Origin: Patescibacteria group bacterium
GTDB taxonomy: Bacteria > Patescibacteriota > Saccharimonadia > Saccharimonadales > UBA4665
Assembly (NCBI GenBank): GCA_030272735.1
Contig: JARXKL010000001.1
Location: 75,571-139,570, forward strand
Length of the DNA: 64,000 nt
Direction of reading: 5' to 3'
The notes beneath the pieces are model-generated. The model saw nothing but the letters and a program-made list of their open reading frames with translations. It searched no databases and had not been told where the DNA came from. A program made the translations under genes and the position numbers. Below, piece by piece: positions 4,497-51,193 of this stretch. The first letter of the stretch is position 1. Every line of letters starts with the position of its first letter.

Positions 4497-5377
4497 TGGC
4501 AAAAAAAGCGCAGGAAACGGGTAAGTTCCGCGCTTACTACCTGCTGACTAAACCAGGCATTATCCGCGGAAACATACTTGTTGCCGCAGGCGGCTTTTTA
4601 TTTGCTGCTCGAGGGCATGTGGATATTTTGTTGCTTTTAGCTACGCTTATCGGTACTTCCCTAGTCATTGCATCTGCGTGCGTACTGAACAATTACATTG
4701 ACCGAGATATTGATACGCGAATGGAACGCACTAAAAAACGAGCATTGGTAACCGGCTTTATTACCCCTTCATCAGCACTGATTTACGCTGCAGTTTTGGG
4801 CATTTCAGGCACGATCATTTTATTTGTGTATGTTAACGCCCTGACTGGCGTAATAGGACTATTTGGTTTTTTTGCGTATGTCGTTCTTTATACCTACGCC
4901 AAAAGGCTGACGACGCACGGTACCGTTATAGGCAGCATTTCCGGGGCCATACCACCGGTCGCCGGCTACGCCGCTGTAACGAACTACTTAGATGTTACTG
5001 CCTTGCTGCTATTTATTATTTTAGTAGCTTGGCAAATGCCGCATTTTTACGCCATCGCTGTTTTCCGCCAGGATGAATACGCCGCTGCCAAAATCCCCGT
5101 TTTGCCGGTAAAAAAAGGACTGCATGCTACTAAAATCCAGATTACTCTTTATATTATTGCCTTCACGGCTGTTTGCGTGTCTCTAGGCATTTTAAGCTAC
5201 GCCAGTACCGGATATTTGATTGTTATGACAGGTATGTCGTTACTGTGGCTAAGGCTTGCTATAAAGGGTTTTAAAGCTGATAACGATCACAAATGGGCGC
5301 GTGAGGTCTTTGGTATGTCACTGCTCGTGATATTGGTGTTTAGCATTATGCTCTCGTTAAATTCACTGTTCTCTTGA
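4496..5377 (+). CDS. cyoE: protohaem IX farnesyltransferase (haem O synthase)
   Basis: 293 aa UbiA-family protein with NNYIDRDID and DxxxD-type motifs. Last gene of the cyo operon. Confidence 0.9.
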   Translation: MAKKAQETGKFRAYYLLTKPGIIRGNILVAAGGFLFAARGHVDILLLLATLIGTSLVIASACVLNNYIDRDIDTRMERTKKRALVTGFITPSSALIYAAVLGISGTIILFVYVNALTGVIGLFGFFAYVVLYTYAKRLTTHGTVIGSISGAIPPVAGYAAVTNYLDVTALLLFIILVAWQMPHFYAIAVFRQDEYAAAKIPVLPVKKGLHATKIQITLYIIAFTAVCVSLGILSYASTGYLIVMTGMSLLWLRLAIKGFKADNDHKWAREVFGMSLLVILVFSIMLSLNSLFS

Positions 5378-5420
5378 TGCAAGGAGAACGCTCTAAAGCA
5401 AATTACATTGCACTTATTAT

Positions 5421-5723
5421 CTAAGATGCTTTATTGATAAATAATCCAACGGCGATTGAAGTGTAAAGAATCACCCCTGATATTTCCACAAGAATGAGGG
5501 GTTTGTCCTTATGTTTGAGTGCATATATCAGCCAGACTAATGCAATTACAGAATACGCAGCCCACGTGCTGAACGATGACCCCTGTTTATGCTCAAACCA
5601 AACAGTATAAAACTGCGGGATAGTCATAATGGGTGTTGCAATTGCGGCAAGATACACCAACCGATCAATCACAGGTTCGGGCTTTTTACGTCGATGTTTT
5701 GCTAGTTTTTTGTGTTTAGGCAC
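5421..5723 (-). CDS. SemiSWEET / PQ-loop family small transporter (3 TM)
   Basis: 100 aa. Contains a PQ motif (IMTIPQFYTVW), then G.S...W, then WLIYALKHKDKP, matching SemiSWEET architecture. Confidence 0.5.
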   Translation of the reverse strand: MPKHKKLAKHRRKKPEPVIDRLVYLAAIATPIMTIPQFYTVWFEHKQGSSFSTWAAYSVIALVWLIYALKHKDKPLILVEISGVILYTSIAVGLFINKAS

Positions 5724-21873: not shown

Positions 21874-21902
21874 TTGACATAGCTACGATATGGGTCTAAA
21901 GT
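21874..21902 (+). promoter_or_regulatory. candidate sigma70-type promoter for the 22063 leader
   Basis: TTGACA - 17 nt - TAAAGT. Confidence 0.5.
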
Positions 21903-21913
21903 TACCAATTGTG

Positions 21914-22051
21914 AAAACAAGCACTCAAAATATGCATAACACAAATTGCGCGGCCAAGCGTCTCTTTGTGATTTACGCGTAACCTGAGTCCTTGTTTTAG
22001 CAGAAATCAAATAATGTAAAACAGAGGACTCCACTACTGGGGTCCTTTTTT
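21914..22051 (+). promoter_or_regulatory. four-segment transcription attenuator (1:2 / 2:3 / 3:4)
   Basis: seg1 AAAACAAGCACUC (21914-21926), seg2 GAGUCCUUGUUUU (21986-21998), seg3 AAAACAGAGGACUC (22018-22031). Terminator GGACUCC-ACUACU-GGGGUCC-UUUUUU (22026-22051), 12 nt before the RBS/ATG. Confidence 0.55.
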
Positions 22052-22062
22052 ACGGAGAAACT

Positions 22063-22560
22063 ATGGCAGCAACAAGATTACAAAGCGGCGTAGAACATAT
22101 AACTGACAGACGTTTGGACGAGATGGACGATTTTATTGTTCCCGAATTGGCAAAAATTCATGTTGCCAGTATTTTTAATACCGAAAATAAAATCAAGAAG
22201 AATTTATCGTATAAACTAGGCCGTCAAACGGTAAGCTGTTATGTTACACCTGAGCTTATAGTCGCACCTGCAAATGTGGATTTACACGAATACGCATTAT
22301 TACTGGGGAAAGCTTCAGTAAAAGGTAAATACGTTATAGGCTTTACCATGGTTAATGAAGAAGCAGCAACGTACAGTGACGACGCTACTGCCCTAGCAGA
22401 GAAATATATTCAAAGAGACTTCTACAATGATAGCGGCTCAAATGTAGTTCTTTTCGAACAGCCAAGCGAAATCGATTCTGAAAGTCTACCAAGACTAGCA
22501 CGACTGCGTGAGCTGATTGCTGGGTTAGATGTTCCGTCTGCGGTTATCATAGCTCAGTAG
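22063..22560 (+). CDS. hypothetical 165-aa protein
   Basis: ORF with RBS GGAG 8 nt upstream. No recognisable family. Confidence 0.65.
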   Translation: MAATRLQSGVEHITDRRLDEMDDFIVPELAKIHVASIFNTENKIKKNLSYKLGRQTVSCYVTPELIVAPANVDLHEYALLLGKASVKGKYVIGFTMVNEEAATYSDDATALAEKYIQRDFYNDSGSNVVLFEQPSEIDSESLPRLARLRELIAGLDVPSAVIIAQ

Positions 22561-43957: not shown

Positions 43958-44632
43958 TTATACGACAACGCGACGTGGCCGAAGTATGCGCTTTGCCCGC
44001 CCGTGGGGTACAATCATCTTCTTAAGTTTGTCTGCTATGAGGTCCGCTTCAGCCTCCATTCCATGGGTTTTGTAAGCTTTATGCAGTAGTGTATAGGTTT
44101 CTTTATTCGGCTCTAGCTCTGAAGCTTTTTCGAGTTCAATAAACATCATCTTGTCATTACCGAGTTTTTCTTGGACTTTAGCGTAGGCAACGTGACGAGC
44201 GGCAAGATTATCTTCGAGTTTCAAAGCTTGCTCAAAGGCAATTGCTGCTTTTTCGTAGTTTTCGGTTTCATAATATATGAGCCCTAGATTGTGGAGGCTT
44301 GATGCAGTAGCTTCAATGCTTGAGGCGATTTCGAAACAATCAATGGCATCTCGGTATTCCTTTTGTTTCGCATACAATATGCCTAAACGGTTGTAAGCTG
44401 CGGCATTCTTTTCATCAATTTTGAGTATTGTTAGTAATGCTTTTTCGGCACGTAAAAAACGATTTTCACGCATCCCCTGATGAGCGATGTCCCATAATTT
44501 ACCCATTTTATCGCCGACTTTTCGGCTGACATTAGCAAACTCGTCGTCGTGCACTTTTGCATTGTGGTAAGCCAAGCCGCCAAAAGCAGCTACAATGAGT
44601 AACTCATACATGCCTTCAAGTATAACAGACAC
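43958..44632 (-). CDS. membrane-anchored TPR repeat protein
   Basis: N-terminal TM plus at least 4 TPR-like repeats (AAYNRLGILYAKQKEYRDAIDCFE...). Confidence 0.75.
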   Translation of the reverse strand: MSVILEGMYELLIVAAFGGLAYHNAKVHDDEFANVSRKVGDKMGKLWDIAHQGMRENRFLRAEKALLTILKIDEKNAAAYNRLGILYAKQKEYRDAIDCFEIASSIEATASSLHNLGLIYYETENYEKAAIAFEQALKLEDNLAARHVAYAKVQEKLGNDKMMFIELEKASELEPNKETYTLLHKAYKTHGMEAEADLIADKLKKMIVPHGRAKRILRPRRVVV

Positions 44633-44636
44633 GCTG

Positions 44637-45488
44637 TTACAGACTAAGCATGAGCTTGGTGAGCGTCAATTTGGGCTGGGCACTCACGGCCAATTCAGTT
44701 GTAGCTTCAAAGCTTGCTGCCAGTACCTGACGCCACTGCTTCGCAGTCTCCTCGCCTGCAGATAGTAAACTCACATGCGCCATTTGCTGCATCATGAAAA
44801 GTACGTTACTAACTAACTCTTTATTCTTAGACAGCTCATCTATGTTGATCAGACGCTCATATGTTGATTTGCCGAGCAGCAATCTCGCCTTATCTAGTGC
44901 CGTCACAAGAGGATGGTCAGAATTTGTTAGAATAGCATGCATAAGACCAGGCAGCCCACCGGTCATCCCATAAGCTCGCTTTATTGCAAACGCTTCAAAG
45001 CCCTGCAGTTCAAAATGGCTCGTTAATTCTCCTAGAGAGGGACTGAGCAGATGTATCTGTTGTACACGGGATATAATAGTTGGCAGTAAGCTCTGAGGCT
45101 GGTTAGCGGTAAGTATAAGGATGGTGTCAGTTGGGGGCTCTTCGAGAGTCTTTAGCAGTGCATTTTGAGCTTCTGTTGTTAGCAGGCTGCCGTTTTCGAT
45201 AATGATTGCCCTATTTATTCCTCTGGAGAATGGAACTTTGAGGCGCAAGAACTTATCAATTTCTCGCACGGACTCGATACCAATTGAAGCGCCCTTGCCT
45301 GCTGTAATATACATAACGTTAGGATTAGTCTTAAACGAAGTTTCGACTTTCATCACCGATTGTACAAGTAGCTTAGCAAAGGCTGACTTACCGCCCCCAG
45401 CAGGTCCGCTCAAGAGGACCGCGTGGGAAGGGTTGGCTATAAAGTGATCCAGCTGCTGCCGAGTTTTGGGATGTATTACCAGCTGCAT
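44637..45488 (-). CDS. holB: DNA polymerase III subunit delta'
   Basis: AVLLSGPAGGGKS P-loop, LLKTLEEPP and SRVQ motifs. Confidence 0.8.
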   Translation of the reverse strand: MQLVIHPKTRQQLDHFIANPSHAVLLSGPAGGGKSAFAKLLVQSVMKVETSFKTNPNVMYITAGKGASIGIESVREIDKFLRLKVPFSRGINRAIIIENGSLLTTEAQNALLKTLEEPPTDTILILTANQPQSLLPTIISRVQQIHLLSPSLGELTSHFELQGFEAFAIKRAYGMTGGLPGLMHAILTNSDHPLVTALDKARLLLGKSTYERLINIDELSKNKELVSNVLFMMQQMAHVSLLSAGEETAKQWRQVLAASFEATTELAVSAQPKLTLTKLMLSL

Positions 45489-45489
45489 A

Positions 45490-46422
45490 CTATTTGCTCA
45501 GTAATTCTTTAAATGCGGTTGGTAACGGAGCTTCGAAAGTTACCCTCTTTCGACTAGGCAACGTGAGCTCAAGACTTTTGGCATGCAAGTACAGCCGAGG
45601 TGCTTTAGTGCCATTATAGAGCGTGTCGCCGACGATAGGGTGGCCTATTTCGTGGAGGTGAACACGTAACTGGTGGGTGCGACCTGTAGAGGGCTTCAAT
45701 TCAAGCAGCGATAGCGCGTCGCTAGTATCAAGCACCTGATATTGCGTAACTGCCGACTTACCATTGCTGCCTACTCTAAATGTTTGCGGCTTTTTGGGAT
45801 TGCGCTCTACTGGCATATCAATTATAGCTTCACCGTTTTGCATTCTTCCTGTAACAACAGCGATATATGACTTTTTTACTTTGCGCTGAGAGAACTGTTT
45901 TTGCAGCCAGCTTAAAGCTACTGGATTTTTAGCACAAATCATAACACCACTTGTTGCTCTGTCGAGGCGATGCACTATGCCTAAGCGATCATTAGACGGA
46001 ACATAAATATTAGGATTCAAAGCCGTTTCATGTGCATCGGACTGTGGCAGAAGTTTGGCAGGCTCGAAAGTATCGATATCCAGTCTAGGTCGTAACCATG
46101 TAGCCACAGTAGCCTCAGGATTAAACGCGCCTTTACTATGTGTCAGCATGCCAATCGGCTTAATAATGACAACACAGTCATCGTCTTCGTATACTATTGG
46201 CAGTTCGACTTCTGGAATGACAATTGTATGGAGCTCATCGAAATGAATTTCTACTACGTCTGCTGTACGTAATTTATAGCCGGATTTGCGCTGCGGATCA
46301 CCGCTTACTGTAACATGACCTTCTTCGATAAGTTTTGATGCAAAGGCGCGACTTACTGATGGCATTTGTCGCACTACATATTGATCAAGGCGCTCGATAA
46401 GCGGTGCAACTGACTCATCCAT
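45490..46422 (-). CDS. rluD: RluA/RluD-family 23S rRNA pseudouridine synthase
   Basis: S4 domain plus the catalytic HRLDRATSG motif. Start trimmed to MDESVAPL (ATG at 46422, directly after the trpS stop). Confidence 0.9.
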   Translation of the reverse strand: MDESVAPLIERLDQYVVRQMPSVSRAFASKLIEEGHVTVSGDPQRKSGYKLRTADVVEIHFDELHTIVIPEVELPIVYEDDDCVVIIKPIGMLTHSKGAFNPEATVATWLRPRLDIDTFEPAKLLPQSDAHETALNPNIYVPSNDRLGIVHRLDRATSGVMICAKNPVALSWLQKQFSQRKVKKSYIAVVTGRMQNGEAIIDMPVERNPKKPQTFRVGSNGKSAVTQYQVLDTSDALSLLELKPSTGRTHQLRVHLHEIGHPIVGDTLYNGTKAPRLYLHAKSLELTLPSRKRVTFEAPLPTAFKELLSK

Positions 46423-46423
46423 G

Positions 46424-47470
46424 TTACGGACGCAGCCCGACTGCTCGTTGCACTCGCAGCAGTGTATTTTGCGCTTGTACAGCCATTGCAGCCTCTGAAT
46501 CTGCAAGTTTATGCATAATAGCAGTATCGTCCACCGCTGCTAACTTAGTTTGGAAAGACGTCAAGAATTCAGTTACAACTGTAGTGACAGCTGTTTTAAG
46601 CGGGCCGTACTGTTCTTGTCCCTGGTATTCGGAGACTACATCGTGCACATCCTTCGCCTGCAAAAAGGCCATAAGCTCGAGCAGTGTTGCTATGCCGGGT
46701 TGCTCAACTTTATTGTATGCGATTGAACCAAGACTATCTGTGGTTGCTGACATGATCTTTTTGCTGGCTACGTCAGGACTATCCGTCAGGAATAGCACAC
46801 CTTTACCGCTTTCATCCGATTTACTCATTTTCTTGCCTGGGTCGCTTAAGTCTTTAACGCGTAAACCTTGGTCTTTGCCAAAGAATTCGTGTTGCGCTGT
46901 AACAGCTTCCGGCACTATGAATACATCACCGAAGCGGTTGTTCATGCGCTGTGCAATGTCACGAGTAAACTCTAGATGTTGCGATTGGTCATCGCCAACC
47001 GGAATATATTTTGCGCCATACAATAATATATCTGCTGCCATCAGGACGGGATAATTGAACAGTCCCACTGATGTCGAAGTTGATTCTTCAGTAAAGCTTG
47101 AGCTCTTCGACTTGTCTTTAAACTGCGTCATGCGTGACATTTCACCATATCCGGTGAAACAATCTAGTATCCAGGTAAGTTCGCTGTGTGCCGGTATGTA
47201 GCTTTGGCGGTAAATATGCACATTTGGATCTGATAGGGGTAAGCCGGCTGCTACAAATACGCGCAGGTTCTGCATGATGCTTTCCTGCAATGTCGCGTGG
47301 TTGATACGAGTGGTAAAGCTATGTAAATCGGGAACAAACAGATTGATCTGATACTCGTCAGCTCGCTGGTTAGCCATGTCGATAATTGGCAATAATCCAC
47401 CTAAATAGTTACCTATATGTAGATCGTTATTTGCGCGGAGGCCGGTCAATATTACAGGTTTTTGGTTCAT
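46424..47470 (-). CDS. trpS: tryptophan--tRNA ligase
   Basis: HIGNYLG (HIGH) and KMSKS motifs. Start trimmed to MNQKPVILTG (ATG at 47470, 4-nt overlap with the upstream gene). Confidence 0.95.
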   Translation of the reverse strand: MNQKPVILTGLRANNDLHIGNYLGGLLPIIDMANQRADEYQINLFVPDLHSFTTRINHATLQESIMQNLRVFVAAGLPLSDPNVHIYRQSYIPAHSELTWILDCFTGYGEMSRMTQFKDKSKSSSFTEESTSTSVGLFNYPVLMAADILLYGAKYIPVGDDQSQHLEFTRDIAQRMNNRFGDVFIVPEAVTAQHEFFGKDQGLRVKDLSDPGKKMSKSDESGKGVLFLTDSPDVASKKIMSATTDSLGSIAYNKVEQPGIATLLELMAFLQAKDVHDVVSEYQGQEQYGPLKTAVTTVVTEFLTSFQTKLAAVDDTAIMHKLADSEAAMAVQAQNTLLRVQRAVGLRP

Positions 47471-48564
47471 AAAATCGCTTCTTTCGTAATGTATGCTTTC
47501 AGTATAGTATAGAATTGCTCTAGAGAGGCAGCATCGACCCATTCATTCTCACCATGTAAGTCTCCACCAATAGGTCGAATCATCATCACAGGAATATTCT
47601 TTGCTGCAAAAAACCGAGCGTCCGAACTACCTCTTTCGCTGAGTTCGCCCAGTTCCTGACCTGTTATCTCTTGATAAGATGTTCTGAAGCGATCGATAGC
47701 GTTACTGTCATCCGCATTCGTGAAAGCCTCTGCCTGTCCTATAACTGTGACTGTAAGTCCATAACTCTCCGCCAACCTAGTAACTTCTTCCAACAATACT
47801 TTTGGTTCATCTTCAATTTGGAATCGGATATCAAGTGTTAGCTGCGCCATATGTGGTATCTGATTGATTGCCTCTCCACCCTTAAACTGCGTAATAACAT
47901 AGGTAGTATTGAATTCATCTTTATTCGGGTGTCGAGCAGTGATATCTGTGACAAAATTAGCTAAGGGGATGATTGGATTGTCTGCCTGTCGAGGACGAGA
48001 ACTATGCCCAGCCCTGCCAGATGACGCTATATTGAGTTGCATAACACCTTTTGAAGTGACGCAGGAGTGCGTGCTACTGCCGGCATCGGGGATAAAGCAT
48101 AGTTCGCACTCGTAATCTTTGACCAGCTCCCCTACTCCATAATAGCCACCAATTTCTTCATCACTGGTAAACATAAACCCCACGTCTAAGTTATGCAGCA
48201 AATTCTGTGAGTGTAATTCGCGCGCTAGGCAGAGATATATCGCCGCAGCAAAAAGCATGTCATACACACCTCGCCCATAGAGCTTGTTGCCGTCAATTCT
48301 CAGCGCAAACTGCTCTGTTTCTGCAGGTACTACATCCATATGAGCTTGTAACAAAACTTTGCTTTTGCGGACTGATTTTGTTCCACATACCAAATAGGGG
48401 TACTTATGATTCTTACCACTAACATATTTGATATCTAGAATGCCAATTTGTTTTTCTAGGTAATCAAATAGCAGCGTGGACTTTTGCTCTTCACCGGTTA
48501 CGGGCTCGAAAGCAACCAATATCGTTAGTTCCTTAATTAGTTCTTGCAAAATTCGCACTATCAA
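47467..48564 (-). CDS. M20 family metallopeptidase (ArgE/DapE-like)
   Basis: HMDVVPA and TSDEEIGG metal-binding motifs. Confidence 0.8.
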   Translation of the reverse strand: MIVRILQELIKELTILVAFEPVTGEEQKSTLLFDYLEKQIGILDIKYVSGKNHKYPYLVCGTKSVRKSKVLLQAHMDVVPAETEQFALRIDGNKLYGRGVYDMLFAAAIYLCLARELHSQNLLHNLDVGFMFTSDEEIGGYYGVGELVKDYECELCFIPDAGSSTHSCVTSKGVMQLNIASSGRAGHSSRPRQADNPIIPLANFVTDITARHPNKDEFNTTYVITQFKGGEAINQIPHMAQLTLDIRFQIEDEPKVLLEEVTRLAESYGLTVTVIGQAEAFTNADDSNAIDRFRTSYQEITGQELGELSERGSSDARFFAAKNIPVMMIRPIGGDLHGENEWVDAASLEQFYTILKAYITKEAIL

Positions 48565-49805
48565 TCGGCCTTTCGGCGCTTATGTAGAGCGTGAGCGAGC
48601 ATTCCGAGCATAACGTCCGTTTCATCGATACTAACGCATTCGTCTGTTATGCTTTGGCCGTACTTTAGTTCGCGAGATTTACCAGGAATCAGTTTTTGAT
48701 TACCCCCTAGCAAAAAACTTTCAATCATTACTCCCTTTATTGCTTGCTGGCCATCGTGTACCTGTCGTGCTACATCTGCAATAACTTTCTGTTGATTAGC
48801 TGCTTTTTTACGACTGTTACCATGAGACGCATCCACGATAATGGCTTGTAGCAACCCTTTCTGTCCTAGAACCTTTATAGCTCGGTTAATATGTTCGGCT
48901 TCGTAATTTGGACCGTCAGCATCTCCACGTAAAATGATGTGCGCACTATCATTGCCTGTTGTTTCGATCTGCTTAGTAGTGTTATTCATGCCTACTCCCA
49001 GGAAGGCGTGCGGTCCACGAGCAGTTACAACGGCTTCAGCGGCTGATAGAACGCTACGCTCACCTTCTGCTGTGTTTTTAAAGCCGACAGGCGAAGATGT
49101 GCCAGAACCGTATTCGCGCGCTTTCTGATCTGTTGTATTGCGCATGCCAATCGCGTCGTAAGCTACGAGTCCGTTTACGTACTGTGGTGTGAGTGCGTTT
49201 AAACGCTCCATTCCAGTAGGTACCCCGGTATTCACAATCTGGCTGGTAAGCATGCGAGTTGCTACTAATCCTAAATTGATATCGTCGGATTCGTCGAGTA
49301 AAGGGTCGTACACAAAACCCTTCCAGCCCAGCTCGGTTCGAGGTTTTTCCATGTAAGCGCGCATGATTATCTCAAGGTCATTGCCGTAAGATTCGCGCCA
49401 GGCAATGACGTGAGATGCATATTCTAGCGCTGCTTCAGGATCGTGTATTGAACAAGGTCCAACTATAACTACTAAGCGGTCGTCATCGCCATGCAAGATC
49501 GCTTCTATTGCTGCGCGTGCAATTCTTGTAGTCGCTGCACCTTCTTTAGTCACTGGAAGGGCTTCTGCTAAAGATTCAGGCGCAATCACGGTTTGCTTAC
49601 TTTCTATTCTAGTATCTATCAAATCTTGTGCGTGATCAGTATCAAGAGGCGCATAGCCTAATCGTTCACGGACGCCTGGTAAGCAATTCAGCCGCGCTTC
49701 ATGAGCTGCTTCCTCTACAACGTTCTCTACGACTAATAATTCATCGCGAACGCGAATCGATTCTTCTAGTATAGTGCTGTGATGTAACGCTGTTTCTGGG
49801 GACAT
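48561..49805 (-). CDS. aroG: 3-deoxy-7-phosphoheptulonate (DAHP) synthase, class I, with an N-terminal extension of about 55 aa
   Basis: GPCSIHD, EKPRTELGWKG and IVDASHGNS motifs. Confidence 0.9.
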   Translation of the reverse strand: MSPETALHHSTILEESIRVRDELLVVENVVEEAAHEARLNCLPGVRERLGYAPLDTDHAQDLIDTRIESKQTVIAPESLAEALPVTKEGAATTRIARAAIEAILHGDDDRLVVIVGPCSIHDPEAALEYASHVIAWRESYGNDLEIIMRAYMEKPRTELGWKGFVYDPLLDESDDINLGLVATRMLTSQIVNTGVPTGMERLNALTPQYVNGLVAYDAIGMRNTTDQKAREYGSGTSSPVGFKNTAEGERSVLSAAEAVVTARGPHAFLGVGMNNTTKQIETTGNDSAHIILRGDADGPNYEAEHINRAIKVLGQKGLLQAIIVDASHGNSRKKAANQQKVIADVARQVHDGQQAIKGVMIESFLLGGNQKLIPGKSRELKYGQSITDECVSIDETDVMLGMLAHALHKRRKAD

Positions 49806-49831
49806 ACTATTCTCGTTTCATATATTGTTAT

Positions 49832-49855
49832 AAAAAAACCGCCTCATTGGCGGTT
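49832..49855 (-). terminator. attenuator terminator in the aroG leader
   Basis: Minus strand: AACCGCC-AAUGA-GGCGGUU-UUUUU, 26 nt upstream of the aroG ATG. Confidence 0.6.
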
Positions 49856-49876
49856 ATGTGTGATTGCTGGTAGTGC

Positions 49877-49954
49877 TTATGCAGATACAGCGAGATAACC
49901 GCTTGGATAATACGGTGTAAACCAATATGCGCAGTTTTGCTGGTTGCTTGACAT
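49877..49954 (-). CDS. candidate 25-codon aromatic-rich leader peptide (MSSNQQNCAYWFTPYYPSGYLAVSA)
   Basis: Own translation. The ATG begins 8 nt after the -10 hexamer (leaderless). Tyr-Trp-Phe at codons 10-12, Tyr-Tyr at 15-16, Tyr at 20. The antiterminator 5' arm lies in codons 18-20. Confidence 0.5.
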   Translation of the reverse strand: MSSNQQNCAYWFTPYYPSGYLAVSA

Positions 49955-49961
49955 AAGGGCT

Positions 49962-49990
49962 AATATACACCCTGTACTAAATCATGTCAA
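49962..49990 (-). promoter_or_regulatory. near-consensus sigma70-type promoter of the aroG operon leader
   Basis: Minus strand: TTGACA - 17 nt - TATATT. Confidence 0.6.
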
Positions 49991-49994
49991 TTTA

Positions 49995-50732
49995 CTAAAT
50001 AATACCGAGACTGTATTCAATTACTGTGGCAACGTGTCCATGATTAGTAACCTGAACAGCTGGGGCAAGATTAACGTCCCACATTGCCCGCACAAGTTCC
50101 TGGCCAGACTCGTATGGTATATACTTGTCGCGCTGTGCGAGGACTACCGAAAGGTTATGGCCCACTAATGCTTCGACGTGTTTGGCGGGAGCAAGATTTG
50201 ACCATGCCCCATCATTTAATGCTTTGACTGTGTAGCCTTTCTCTTTATACCCATCACTCATTCGCTGAGTTCGTTGACCGTTCATAAACGGCCACGCTAG
50301 GGTCGCACCGGGCACTACCATAGCTACATTATTGAACAACTGTGTTCTTGCTGTAACTAAGCTCAACGCAACATTTCCTAAGCTAAAACCAACAAGATTG
50401 ATATTTTTAAAATCAGCTTGTTGTTTATCAATTTCCGCAGCAATGACATCAGCTGTATATTCGAAAGAATCTGCAACCATCTGTGCGTTATACGAAAGCA
50501 TTCTATGGTCGAAGTTATAGAGCATAGAGCTGCTCTTGTTGAATGCGAGTCTTGCTTGCAAGATTTTTGAAAGTGAGTTAGAGGCGTGCCATGGAGGAAA
50601 AACAATTGTTAAGGTGTTGCTATTTTTAACATCACACGATATGACCTCAACGATTGAGTCTTGAGGTTCGAAGCCTGGCATATGCTCGGGTTCGTAACGT
50701 TGAAATGCTTTAGATAGTACTGTATCAATCAT
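49995..50732 (-). CDS. alpha/beta-hydrolase-like protein
   Basis: 245 aa with GFSLGN (GxSxG) nucleophile elbow. C-terminal His candidates. Confidence 0.6.
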   Translation of the reverse strand: MIDTVLSKAFQRYEPEHMPGFEPQDSIVEVISCDVKNSNTLTIVFPPWHASNSLSKILQARLAFNKSSSMLYNFDHRMLSYNAQMVADSFEYTADVIAAEIDKQQADFKNINLVGFSLGNVALSLVTARTQLFNNVAMVVPGATLAWPFMNGQRTQRMSDGYKEKGYTVKALNDGAWSNLAPAKHVEALVGHNLSVVLAQRDKYIPYESGQELVRAMWDVNLAPAVQVTNHGHVATVIEYSLGII

Positions 50733-50794
50733 GTAATATCTCGGACCGAATTACTAGAACTTTACTCTCGGAGTTACAAATGAATTTACGAGTA

Positions 50795-51193
50795 TTAACG
50801 CTTAGTAAATTGGCGTTGTTTGCGAGCGCCTTTGAGGCCGAACTTCTTTCGTTCACGTTCGCGTGCATCGCGAGTAAGAAGGTCAGCGCGCTTGAGGGTG
50901 CTCTTGAGATTTTCGTCCATTACGACGAGTGCCTTCGAGATACCTAAACGGATTGCTTCAACCTGACCTTCGTGGCCGCCACCTGATACCACTACGGTAA
51001 CATCGAACTTGCCGGTATTATCGAGAGCTACAAATGGTTGGTCCAGCTTAGCTAGGAGGTATTTGCTGTCAGCAAAATATTCGCTGGCTGGTTGACCGTT
51101 AATGGTCACATTGCCTTTGCCGCCCATAAGGCGCACGCGAGCTGTTGCACTCTTGCGGCGACCTAAAGCGTAGAAATAACTGTCTTTAGCCAT
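50795..51193 (-). CDS. rpsI: 30S ribosomal protein S9
   Basis: C-terminal RKKFGLKGARKQRQFTKR and the conserved core. Follows rplM. Confidence 0.97.
   Translation of the reverse strand: MAKDSYFYALGRRKSATARVRLMGGKGNVTINGQPASEYFADSKYLLAKLDQPFVALDNTGKFDVTVVVSGGGHEGQVEAIRLGISKALVVMDENLKSTLKRADLLTRDARERERKKFGLKGARKQRQFTKR

Follow-up and report, generated by a model that had tools for sequence, protein, structure and literature searches.

The DNA analysed here is a stretch of 64,000 nucleotides (nt), hereafter the 64-kb window, of contig JARXKL010000001.1 from Patescibacteria group bacterium (UBA4665). [quoted passage not shown] Judged by comparison with related genomes, this unit is a real, conserved cis-regulatory element across Saccharimonadales. 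It very probably acts as a ribosome-mediated (leader-peptide) transcription attenuator that sets DAHP synthase by the supply of charged tRNA-Tyr, tRNA-Trp, and tRNA-Phe. An initial annotation of the window had proposed such an attenuator and had placed its promoter, ORF, aromatic codons, segments 2 and 3, and terminator on the minus strand; all of them lie where they had been placed. What can be read from the DNA of the window and its relatives is the parts of the unit, how they are conserved and spaced, and the alternative folds that they are predicted to take.

The leader upstream of the DAHP synthase gene

The promoter of the unit is formed by a -35 hexamer, TTGACA (49985-49990), and a -10 hexamer, TATATT (49962-49967), with a spacer of 17 nt. 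The initial annotation had called it near-consensus, and the scans agree. It matches at 11 of 12 positions and is the sole match of this quality among 19 promoter-like sites in a scan of 10 kb. It is also the top sigma-70-like match across the whole window. The -10 hexamer is followed by 7 nt (AGCCCUU) and then by an AUG at 49954, with no purine-rich Shine-Dalgarno (SD) sequence ahead of it. This AUG opens the leader ORF (49877-49954), which has 25 codons and a TAA stop (UAA in the RNA, 49879-49877) and would encode MSSNQQNCAYWFTPYYPSGYLAVSA. Six of its codons are aromatic, Y10, W11, F12, Y15, Y16, and Y20. The first three, UAU-UGG-UUU (Tyr10-Trp11-Phe12, 49919-49927), are the proposed stalling site and form the best-conserved block of the alignment of leaders (alignment A1).

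Four segments with alternative partners follow the aromatic codons. Segment 1 (ACCGU, 49912-49916) could act as an anti-antiterminator through pairing with the 5' part of segment 2, a pairing that is weak in the window. Segment 2 (GCGGUUAU, 49895-49902) is the 5' strand of the antiterminator and segment 3 (AUAACCGC, 49850-49857) is its 3' strand. The two are exactly complementary and give a 2:3 helix of 8 bp. Between them lies a predicted internal hairpin (49866-49891), not conserved in sequence, which holds the stop codon of the leader and would be covered by a ribosome that terminates there. Segment 3 overlaps the 5' arm of the intrinsic terminator (segments 3:4, 49832-49855), a hairpin that reads AACCGCC-AAUGA-GGCGGUU and is followed by a run of seven U. 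The motif ACCGCC-N4-7-GGCGGT occurs once in the window, where 0.01 occurrences are expected.

The regulated gene (48561-49805, minus strand) begins with an ATG at 49805, 26 nt past the U run. A scan of the minus strand from 49960 to 49806 found no further promoter-like site. The gene encodes a class I-alpha DAHP synthase of 414 amino acids (aa; PF00793, TIGR00034 aroFGH), which scores 374 bits on TIGR00034 (cutoff 173). The name aroG that it had been given holds in the wider sense of an AroF/G/H-type enzyme, and the protein falls below the cutoff of the AroG-specific model. The same sequence is on record as a protein of a Patescibacteria metagenome-assembled genome (MAG), and the protein's nearest relatives carry the labels Saccharibacteria or Saccharimonadales.

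Conservation of the unit in Saccharimonadales

Relatives were gathered by their DAHP synthase, and the leader was never used as a query. They came from species-representative genomes, metagenome contigs, and 11 protein-search look-ups, and the protein of the window itself was the subject of a twelfth. The protein search listed more than 100 DAHP synthases of the Saccharibacteria type, and the DNA was compared for 16 distinct loci. The sample consists of 16 distinct complete upstream regions of the Saccharimonadales type and one partial region (L012), with DAHP synthases that are 52-64% identical to that of the window. Two other contigs of the same strain have an identical leader and add no information.

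The unit was found directly upstream of DAHP synthase in all 16 distinct loci, and L012 shows its 3' part. The order of its parts is TTGAC.-17-TATATT, ATG, an ORF of 20-26 codons, aromatic core, segment 2, stop, terminator, SD, and gene. A TTGAC.-like hexamer is also present in the 15 relatives whose contig reaches the promoter, again 17 nt from the -10 hexamer, which is TATATT in 15 of the 16 leaders and TACATT in the other. The ATG follows at 7 nt (8 nt in two) in every leader, across a spacer that is variable and pyrimidine-rich. A GGCGGU-like motif is kept as segment 2. The terminator takes the form ACCGCC-loop-GGCGGU with U5-7, and its ACCGCC/GGCGGU core is invariant in 15 of 16 leaders. 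From the U run to DAHP synthase there are 17-44 nt, which include the SD. Since this gap is so short, transcription of DAHP synthase must pass through the terminator.

In alignment A1, both hexamers, the ATG, the codons of the aromatic core, segments 1-4, and the U run form the conserved islands. From the ATG to the core, and from the stop to segment 3, sequence and length vary. The small ORF and the aromatic core, whose conservation the initial annotation had left to an alignment of related upstream regions, are present in all 16. A covariance model (R1) was built from the leader alignment and searched against about 0.85 Mb, made up of the whole window, loci L001-L033, and 66 unrelated viral contigs as negative controls. 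It matched leader sites only, among them the partial leader of L012, which was not used in training (35.8 bits). The best matches elsewhere reached 24 and 19 bits. A scan of the viral contigs with the pattern TTGGTTTAC-N10-16-GGCGGT gave 120 loci. None of these has a terminator, and all are therefore chance matches.

A direct repeat, TTGACA-N4-5-TTGACA, lies over the -35 hexamer and spacer of the leader promoter in L001 (3818-3840), L002 (964-986), L020, L021, L023, L024, L025, and L010. The window promoter has one TTGACA copy only. The repeat could be an operator or a relic.

The leader ORF and its aromatic codons

The first four bases of the ORF, ATGT, are invariant. The distance from the ATG to the Trp codon (a Leu codon in L027) is 21, 27, 30, or 33 nt, each a multiple of three. 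At least three independent insertions or deletions (indels) are needed to produce these distances, each again a multiple of three. Such frame-keeping indels argue that the leader ORF is read as an ORF. Its stop codon can be TAA, TGA, or TAG. Examples of the leader peptides are those of L001 (MSRLHGSCQYWFTGTPRGGLFCMYT), L004 (MSRFQDGSPYWFSGSARGGRLRLNA), L022 (MSKAQSNQYWFTGISDGGRFCA), L025 (MSRLMYTGQFWFTDTFMWRSFTQCS), L028 (MSIAKSNYTWFTDLYDDGCFNVHL), L030 (MLGSNVSYQFWFTELTRAVAA), and L027 (MLIADTYLFTETPYGGLLDV).

The aromatic core is YWF in 11 of the leaders, FWF in three, YTWF in one, and YLF in one. The three FWF leaders have a Tyr two codons earlier. The YLF core belongs to L027, in which UGG has become UUG. 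This is also the sole locus with neither trp genes nor trpS downstream. The match between the lost Trp codon and the absent genes is suggestive, as a single case. The initial annotation had pointed to the additional Tyr codons of the window leader as well as to the Tyr-Trp-Phe triplet. Only the triplet is conserved; Y15, Y16, and Y20 are not kept in relatives.

Past the Phe codon, a different constraint is seen. Indels of one base occur there, and segment 2 falls in all three reading frames. It is mostly read as GGC-GGU, but as UGG-CGG-U in L025, as G-GCG-GUU in L030 and L033, and as A-GCG-GUU in the window. Being kept in all three frames, segment 2 is an element of the RNA. The upstream half of the leader is thus constrained as codons and the downstream half as RNA, as would be expected for an attenuator leader but not for a small protein with a function.

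The predicted antiterminator/terminator switch

The 2:3 and 3:4 helices had been described as mutually exclusive in the window. This holds there and in all 16 relatives. When both conformers of the window were folded, as the initial annotation had suggested, the terminator hairpin gave -11.3 kcal/mol (z = -4.5) and the 2:3 conformer with its small internal hairpin gave -15.3 kcal/mol (z = -2.85). In relatives, the terminator hairpins range from -7.3 to -13.5 kcal/mol and the 2:3 duplexes from -11 to -21 kcal/mol. With the strands of the 2:3 helix in register, 79.5% of cells are paired, compared with 24-60% when the partner is slid by 1-3 columns. The flanking pairs of this helix covary. Column 55:116 is UA in seven leaders, CG in three, and UG in one, and column 54:117 is GC in seven and AU in two. 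Columns 116 and 117 lie in the terminator loop, so this covariation is informative for the 2:3 helix specifically.

A 1:2 hairpin directly after the Phe codon, which the initial annotation did not have, was also found. It has 7-8 pairs in relatives and is clear in most of them. In register, 71.5% of its cells are paired, compared with 23-45% when slid, and pair 47:54 is CG in eight leaders and UA in four.

The spacing of these parts is constrained as well. In 15 of 16 leaders, the Phe codon is followed by segment 2 at a distance of 12-16 nt. From segment 2 to the stop codon there are 4-17 nt, and from the stop to segment 3 a further 18-29 nt, so that the stop is always between the two. To represent a stalled ribosome, the transcript was folded as it stands prior to synthesis of segment 4, and its first nucleotides, as far as 10 nt beyond the Phe codon, were masked; the predicted minimum-energy structure is then the 2:3 helix in 16 of 16. 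The classical stall and run-on model of the initial annotation is consistent with this modelled fold and with the conserved geometry. The ribosome footprint sizes used in reading the geometry are those of general knowledge.

Proposed mechanism and alternative explanations

The transcription start, the translation of the ORF, the stalling, and the regulatory outcome can be inferred from these features. Transcription would start at, or 1-2 bases from, the A of the leader AUG, and a ribosome would load on the 5' end without an SD. Such a start is suggested by the fixed 7-nt spacing, the pyrimidine before the A, the lack of an SD, and the likely leaderless trpS of L033 described below. When any aromatic aminoacyl-tRNA is scarce, the ribosome would stall on UAU-UGG-UUU, with one of these codons in its A site. 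It would cover segment 1 and reach not quite as far as segment 2, which lies about 13-16 nt further on and would be left free. Segment 2 could then capture segment 3 as it emerges, the terminator hairpin would not form, and RNA polymerase would read into DAHP synthase. When supply is good, the ribosome would pass segment 2 and reach the stop between segments 2 and 3. The approximately 30 nt held in the ribosome would keep segment 2 from segment 3. Segment 3 would then pair with segment 4, and transcription would end at the U run. Transcripts that are not translated would form the 1:2 and 3:4 helices and terminate. In read-through from the upstream rpsI operon, the leader AUG would be internal, without an SD, and untranslatable, so such transcripts would terminate by default. 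The leaderless design may in this way also insulate DAHP synthase from the strong ribosomal protein operon upstream.

A number of observations weigh against this reading. The shuffle controls for the 2:3 helix are moderate (7 of 500 by the share of cells paired, 39 of 500 by covariation score), and the relatedness of the sequences is a caveat. The cores of the 2:3 and 3:4 helices are invariant and the covariation rests on few flanking pairs; the terminator core, being invariant, cannot covary. The covariation that the initial annotation had proposed to look for in both helices is therefore seen in the 2:3 flanks and not in the 3:4 core. RNAalifold recovers only the terminator from the alignment, as is expected of a switch. 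The 1:2 hairpin of the window is weak (5 pairs, -4.6 kcal/mol, z = -2.3). In addition, the 2:3 helix is preferred at equilibrium in the partial transcript of 12 of 16 leaders even without a ribosome. Termination in unstarved cells would thus depend on ribosome position and kinetics.

Other points of this kind concern the ORF. Frame 2 of the leader is also stop-free in many sequences, which makes the open frame by itself weak evidence. When the window is read in six frames, small ORFs with at least three consecutive aromatic codons including Trp turn up at about 16 distinct sites. Because such triplets are common by chance, YWF alone is not significant; what makes it so is its occurrence together with the promoter, the terminator, the position, and the conservation. 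Each amino acid has one codon, fewer than in most classical leaders, and sensitivity may therefore be low. Codon identity alone does not explain why Phe is encoded by UUU in 16 of 16 leaders and Tyr almost always by UAU, when the window's genes use TTT at 58% and TAT at 54%. A preference for wobble-decoded codons is one possibility for these near-invariant third positions. Pairing of the invariant UUGGUUU with an AACCAA-like element before segment 3 was considered as well. It is good in four relatives but not in the window or most others, and was rejected as not general.

These invariant bases bear on the first alternative, that the switch is real but set by a trans-acting factor, such as a TRAP- or PyrR-type protein, an uncharged tRNA, or a small ligand, with the ORF being incidental. 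This appears improbable. It would account for UAUUGGUUUAC being conserved beyond the needs of codon identity (UUU in all 16 leaders and 58% in the genome) and would not be troubled by the single codon per amino acid. A candidate factor could be the TrpR-like protein (PF01371) that is encoded beside DAHP synthase in many relatives. PF01371 proteins are, however, DNA-binding repressors, and no PF01371 gene was found in the window by tblastn. An Rfam search of 49000-51000 at E values up to 10, and of the whole window at the gathering score, gave no T-box and no other family for this leader. It returned only tRNAs, an L10 leader, and chance small RNA matches driven by the terminator. With about 120 nt, the leader falls short of the 200 nt or so, or more, that characterise T-box leaders along with a specifier loop and the conserved T-box sequence, and (G/U)AG repeats are missing from it. 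T-box, TRAP-like, and riboswitch readings were rejected for this shortness and the missing motifs. Nor does the ORF look incidental, as its ATG is invariant at a fixed distance from the -10 hexamer, the indels before its aromatic codons keep the frame, and its stop is always between segments 2 and 3.

Even less probable is an independent small gene, for a micropeptide or a trans-acting small RNA, with DAHP synthase transcribed by terminator leakage or from a promoter that escaped recognition. The promoter and the terminator are both strong, and with about 120 nt they do amount to a complete transcription unit. There is also a precedent in Sinorhizobium, where the attenuator-derived RNA rnTrpL and the leader peptide peTrpL have functions in trans (PMC6614838, PMC7298713). 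The peptide of Saccharimonadales, however, is conserved neither in sequence nor in length (20-26 aa) outside the aromatic core, and its C-terminal half is in differing frames relative to the RNA motif. The unit is always directly before DAHP synthase and moves with it, and there is no room for another promoter. In a small gene of this kind, it would serve nothing that segment 2 is complementary to the terminator arm and keeps a fixed distance to the aromatic codons. A role in trans on top of attenuation is possible.

Chance, in the form of a terminator of the upstream gene, a promoter of DAHP synthase, and an accidental ORF and complementarity, is scarcely credible and already contradicted: the leader hairpin probably also ends the rpsI operon in most relatives and aromatic triplets in small ORFs are common, but the promoter lies upstream of the terminator and cannot drive the gene without read-through, and all parts and spacings are kept in 16 lineages whose DAHP synthases are only 52-64% identical.

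Gene neighborhood

The genes behind DAHP synthase in the window (43958-48564, minus strand) are tightly packed and encode an M20/ArgE-DapE-family hydrolase, TrpS (TIGR00233, 270 bits), an RluD-like pseudouridine synthase, HolB, and a TPR protein. They overlap or abut, and a scan found no convincing terminator between them. It can be inferred from this arrangement that they are co-transcribed with DAHP synthase. The gene for HolB and other housekeeping genes may have internal promoters or may depend on the leader promoter.

The neighborhood varies among relatives. The order M20-trpS-rluD-holB is found downstream in the window and in L020, and in one further contig, for which gene order only was compared, trpS follows DAHP synthase directly. 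In L022-L025, L028, L030, and L033, DAHP synthase is instead followed by a TrpR-like gene and then by trpC, trpB, trpA, and trpE. Genes without a known function are downstream in L027. The initial annotation had drawn attention to trpS in the downstream operon. This is correct for the window and L020 but is lineage-specific, since elsewhere a trp operon takes its place or trpS has its own promoter. Upstream of the unit, rpsI is the direct neighbor in most loci. The other upstream neighbors are a divergent def (L028), a divergent gene of unknown function (L030), and a TPR gene (L033), and in these three loci trpS-rluD-holB-TPR lies upstream of the unit. As the unit is present in every one of these gene arrangements, the leader appears to move with the DAHP synthase gene. 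Most relatives have no other terminator after rpsI, and the leader hairpin thus probably also ends the ribosomal protein operon.

In the window, a 245-aa ORF without an assigned family stands upstream of the leader, followed by rpsI, rplM, and rplQ. This ORF (49995-50732, minus strand) separates rpsI from the leader promoter, with a stop codon that abuts the -35 box. It is missing from all other relatives, in which the leader follows rpsI directly, and is present in the two further contigs of the same strain. It matches no Pfam family and has only a sub-threshold NCBIfam match to RcgR-family lactone hydrolases.

The TrpR-like protein of the relatives belongs to the Trp repressor family (PF01371). 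Its gene is located directly after DAHP synthase and before trpB, trpA, and trpE, and it is either free-standing or fused N-terminally to indole-3-glycerol-phosphate synthase (L022, 5265-5528; L023, 5706-6809; L024, 5303-6415; L025, 5256-6368; L028, L030, and L033, approximately 5270-5550). It may provide a second, protein-based layer of Trp control. A tblastn search with the trp operon and TrpR-like proteins of the relatives gave no match in the 64-kb window, the rest of the genome being outside the search.

In L033, trpS is not behind the attenuator. There (139-232), rpsI has a terminator hairpin of its own, after which come TATAAT, 7 nt, and the ATG of trpS. From this sequence, trpS of L033 is probably leaderless, which fits leaderless initiation being in ordinary use in the clade. 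A count of -10 boxes 6-8 nt before the starts of long ORFs gave no clear excess over other spacings; internal ATGs swamp this count.

Other candidate regulatory RNAs in the window

A second unit of promoter, leader, terminator, and gene is present at 21874-22062 on the plus strand. It has the promoter TTGACA-17-TAAAGT, followed by about 150 nt of leader with a long hairpin of very high stability and the terminator GGACUCC-ACUACU-GGGGUCC-U6 (minimum free energy -51.3 kcal/mol, z = -6.0). Within the long hairpin, GAGUCCU could pair with the 5' arm of the terminator, to which it is complementary, and this would allow an antiterminator. Behind the unit comes an ORF of 165 aa (22063-22560) that matches nothing in Pfam or NCBIfam, and the unit itself has no Rfam match. 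On the minus strand, 21053-21183 matches the Rfam family L10_leader (RF00557) at 57.3 bits, above the gathering score, and represents a ribosomal protein leader of the ordinary type. This genome therefore has at least one cis-regulatory RNA of a known kind that can be recognised.

Significance

To our knowledge, hardly any cis-regulatory RNA elements have been described for the Candidate Phyla Radiation (CPR, Patescibacteria). If the proposed mechanism is true, at least the environmental Saccharimonadales lineages make aromatic compounds de novo and tune this to tRNA charging. Their ribosomes would also be able to start on 5'-terminal AUGs, and transcription and translation would be coupled closely enough for attenuation in bacteria that are supposed to be host-dependent. 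The Y-W-F triplet would be a compact OR gate on the first enzyme of the common aromatic pathway. Enterobacteria reach the same end with three isoenzymes under separate repressor control. The element can also serve as a recognisable annotation signature (covariance model R1) and may offer a small, portable sensor. The mechanism itself is a textbook one with close actinobacterial analogues, and the concepts of attenuation are thus unchanged.

A wider proposal can be put forward tentatively, with slightly more doubt than confidence. In it, the unit is the first leader-peptide attenuator to be recognised in the CPR and a clade-wide mobile promoter-leader-aroFGH module of Saccharimonadales. It would be a two-in-one device, in which transcripts from its own promoter sense Tyr, Trp, and Phe and read-through from upstream terminates by default. 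The module may share ancestry with the aromatic leaders of Actinomycetota DAHP synthases. Actinomycetota is the host phylum of cultivated Saccharibacteria.

Comparison with known systems

By its sequence, the Saccharimonadales leader has the features of the leader-peptide attenuator class, with a 1:2 hairpin that is clear in most relatives and weak in the window. It is outside all curated Rfam leader families, including Trp_leader, Phe_leader, and the other amino acid leaders. A curated Rfam family exists for the Phe leader, and Trp_leader (RF00513) is cited in PMC4046766. The logic is that of trpL and pheL, in which four segments form the pairs 1:2, 2:3, and 3:4, the regulatory codons stand within segment 1 or immediately ahead of it, and the terminator is intrinsic. 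The last regulatory codon of E. coli trpL is approximately 14 nt from segment 2, and this gap is 12-16 nt in the Saccharimonadales leaders. However, trpL and pheL have an SD and a 5' untranslated region, tandem codons for one amino acid, and a stop before segment 2. The Saccharimonadales leader, in contrast, is apparently leaderless, with one codon for each of three amino acids and a stop between segments 2 and 3.

A literature search found no attenuator, leader peptide, or leaderless mRNA for Saccharibacteria or Patescibacteria, with incomplete coverage, so that this is absence of evidence only. The initial annotation had known of no such attenuator in a CPR-like genome or in leaderless form. 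The first part, novelty at the level of the phylum, probably holds for an attenuator of this type in Saccharibacteria and the CPR. The second is too strong, as leaderless leader peptides and attenuation of DAHP synthase are already known in Actinobacteria.

The closest likeness is found in Corynebacterium glutamicum, whose aroF encodes a class I enzyme. The leader peptide aroR, with the core F-Y-F, is located upstream of aroF, one of several DAHP synthase genes in this species (Mentz 2013, PMC4046766; PMC3890552; PMC11802643). Read-through into aroF rises under Phe limitation, and the response is to Phe only, according to the summary of Neshat 2014 in PMC11802643. Compared by published description, both leaders have three consecutive aromatic codons directly upstream of DAHP synthase. 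Stalling raises read-through in aroR-aroF, the outcome that is also proposed for Saccharimonadales. Other leader-peptide genes of corynebacteria are leaderless, as is proposed here. Unlike aroR, which has no Trp codon, the Saccharimonadales leader has Y-W-F, one codon per end product. The two also differ in phylum, aroR being in Actinomycetota and the present leader in Saccharibacteria (CPR).

A small ORF was also observed upstream of more distant DAHP synthases (42-45% identity) in L005 (3730-3820), L006, L007 (3736-3830), L008 (3728-3820), L014 (3748-3840), and L018 (3726-3820), which come from MAGs of Actinomycetes and Solirubrobacterales. It starts 7-8 nt past a TACAAA-like box and has its aromatic cluster at the end, as in MNRATTLASSIAPQGQRRRAWFWYSRFS, ...RRSYYWRFS, ...SGYWYWRFS, ...FTYYWRFS, and ...LYSWYWRFS. 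The stop is followed by a conserved helix, GGCGUCCGGC...GCCGGACGCC. They look like a family of multivalent aromatic leaders in their own right. In a comparative study of actinobacterial attenuators from 2005, aro genes are not mentioned.

Leaderless leader peptides have been described for other pathways. The leader of ilvB in C. diphtheriae is one (PMC5784534), and for ilvBNC of C. glutamicum, PMC4046766 cites Morbach 2000. In mycobacteria, poly-Cys leaderless small ORFs attenuate at the level of translation by unmasking a ribosome-binding site (bioRxiv 10.1101/834739). The Saccharimonadales leader resembles these actinobacterial examples in that its transcript would begin with the sensing ORF and have no SD for it, and in that stalling at end-product codons would raise downstream expression. 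It differs from the mycobacterial Cys ORFs in that it would act on an intrinsic terminator and not on translation, and the amino acids and genes are also different. The thr and ilv leaders of enterobacteria are multivalent, with many codons per amino acid, and shortage of any one amino acid relieves termination. The Saccharimonadales leader is like them in combining several amino acids in one peptide and unlike them in doing so with a minimal triplet, one codon each.

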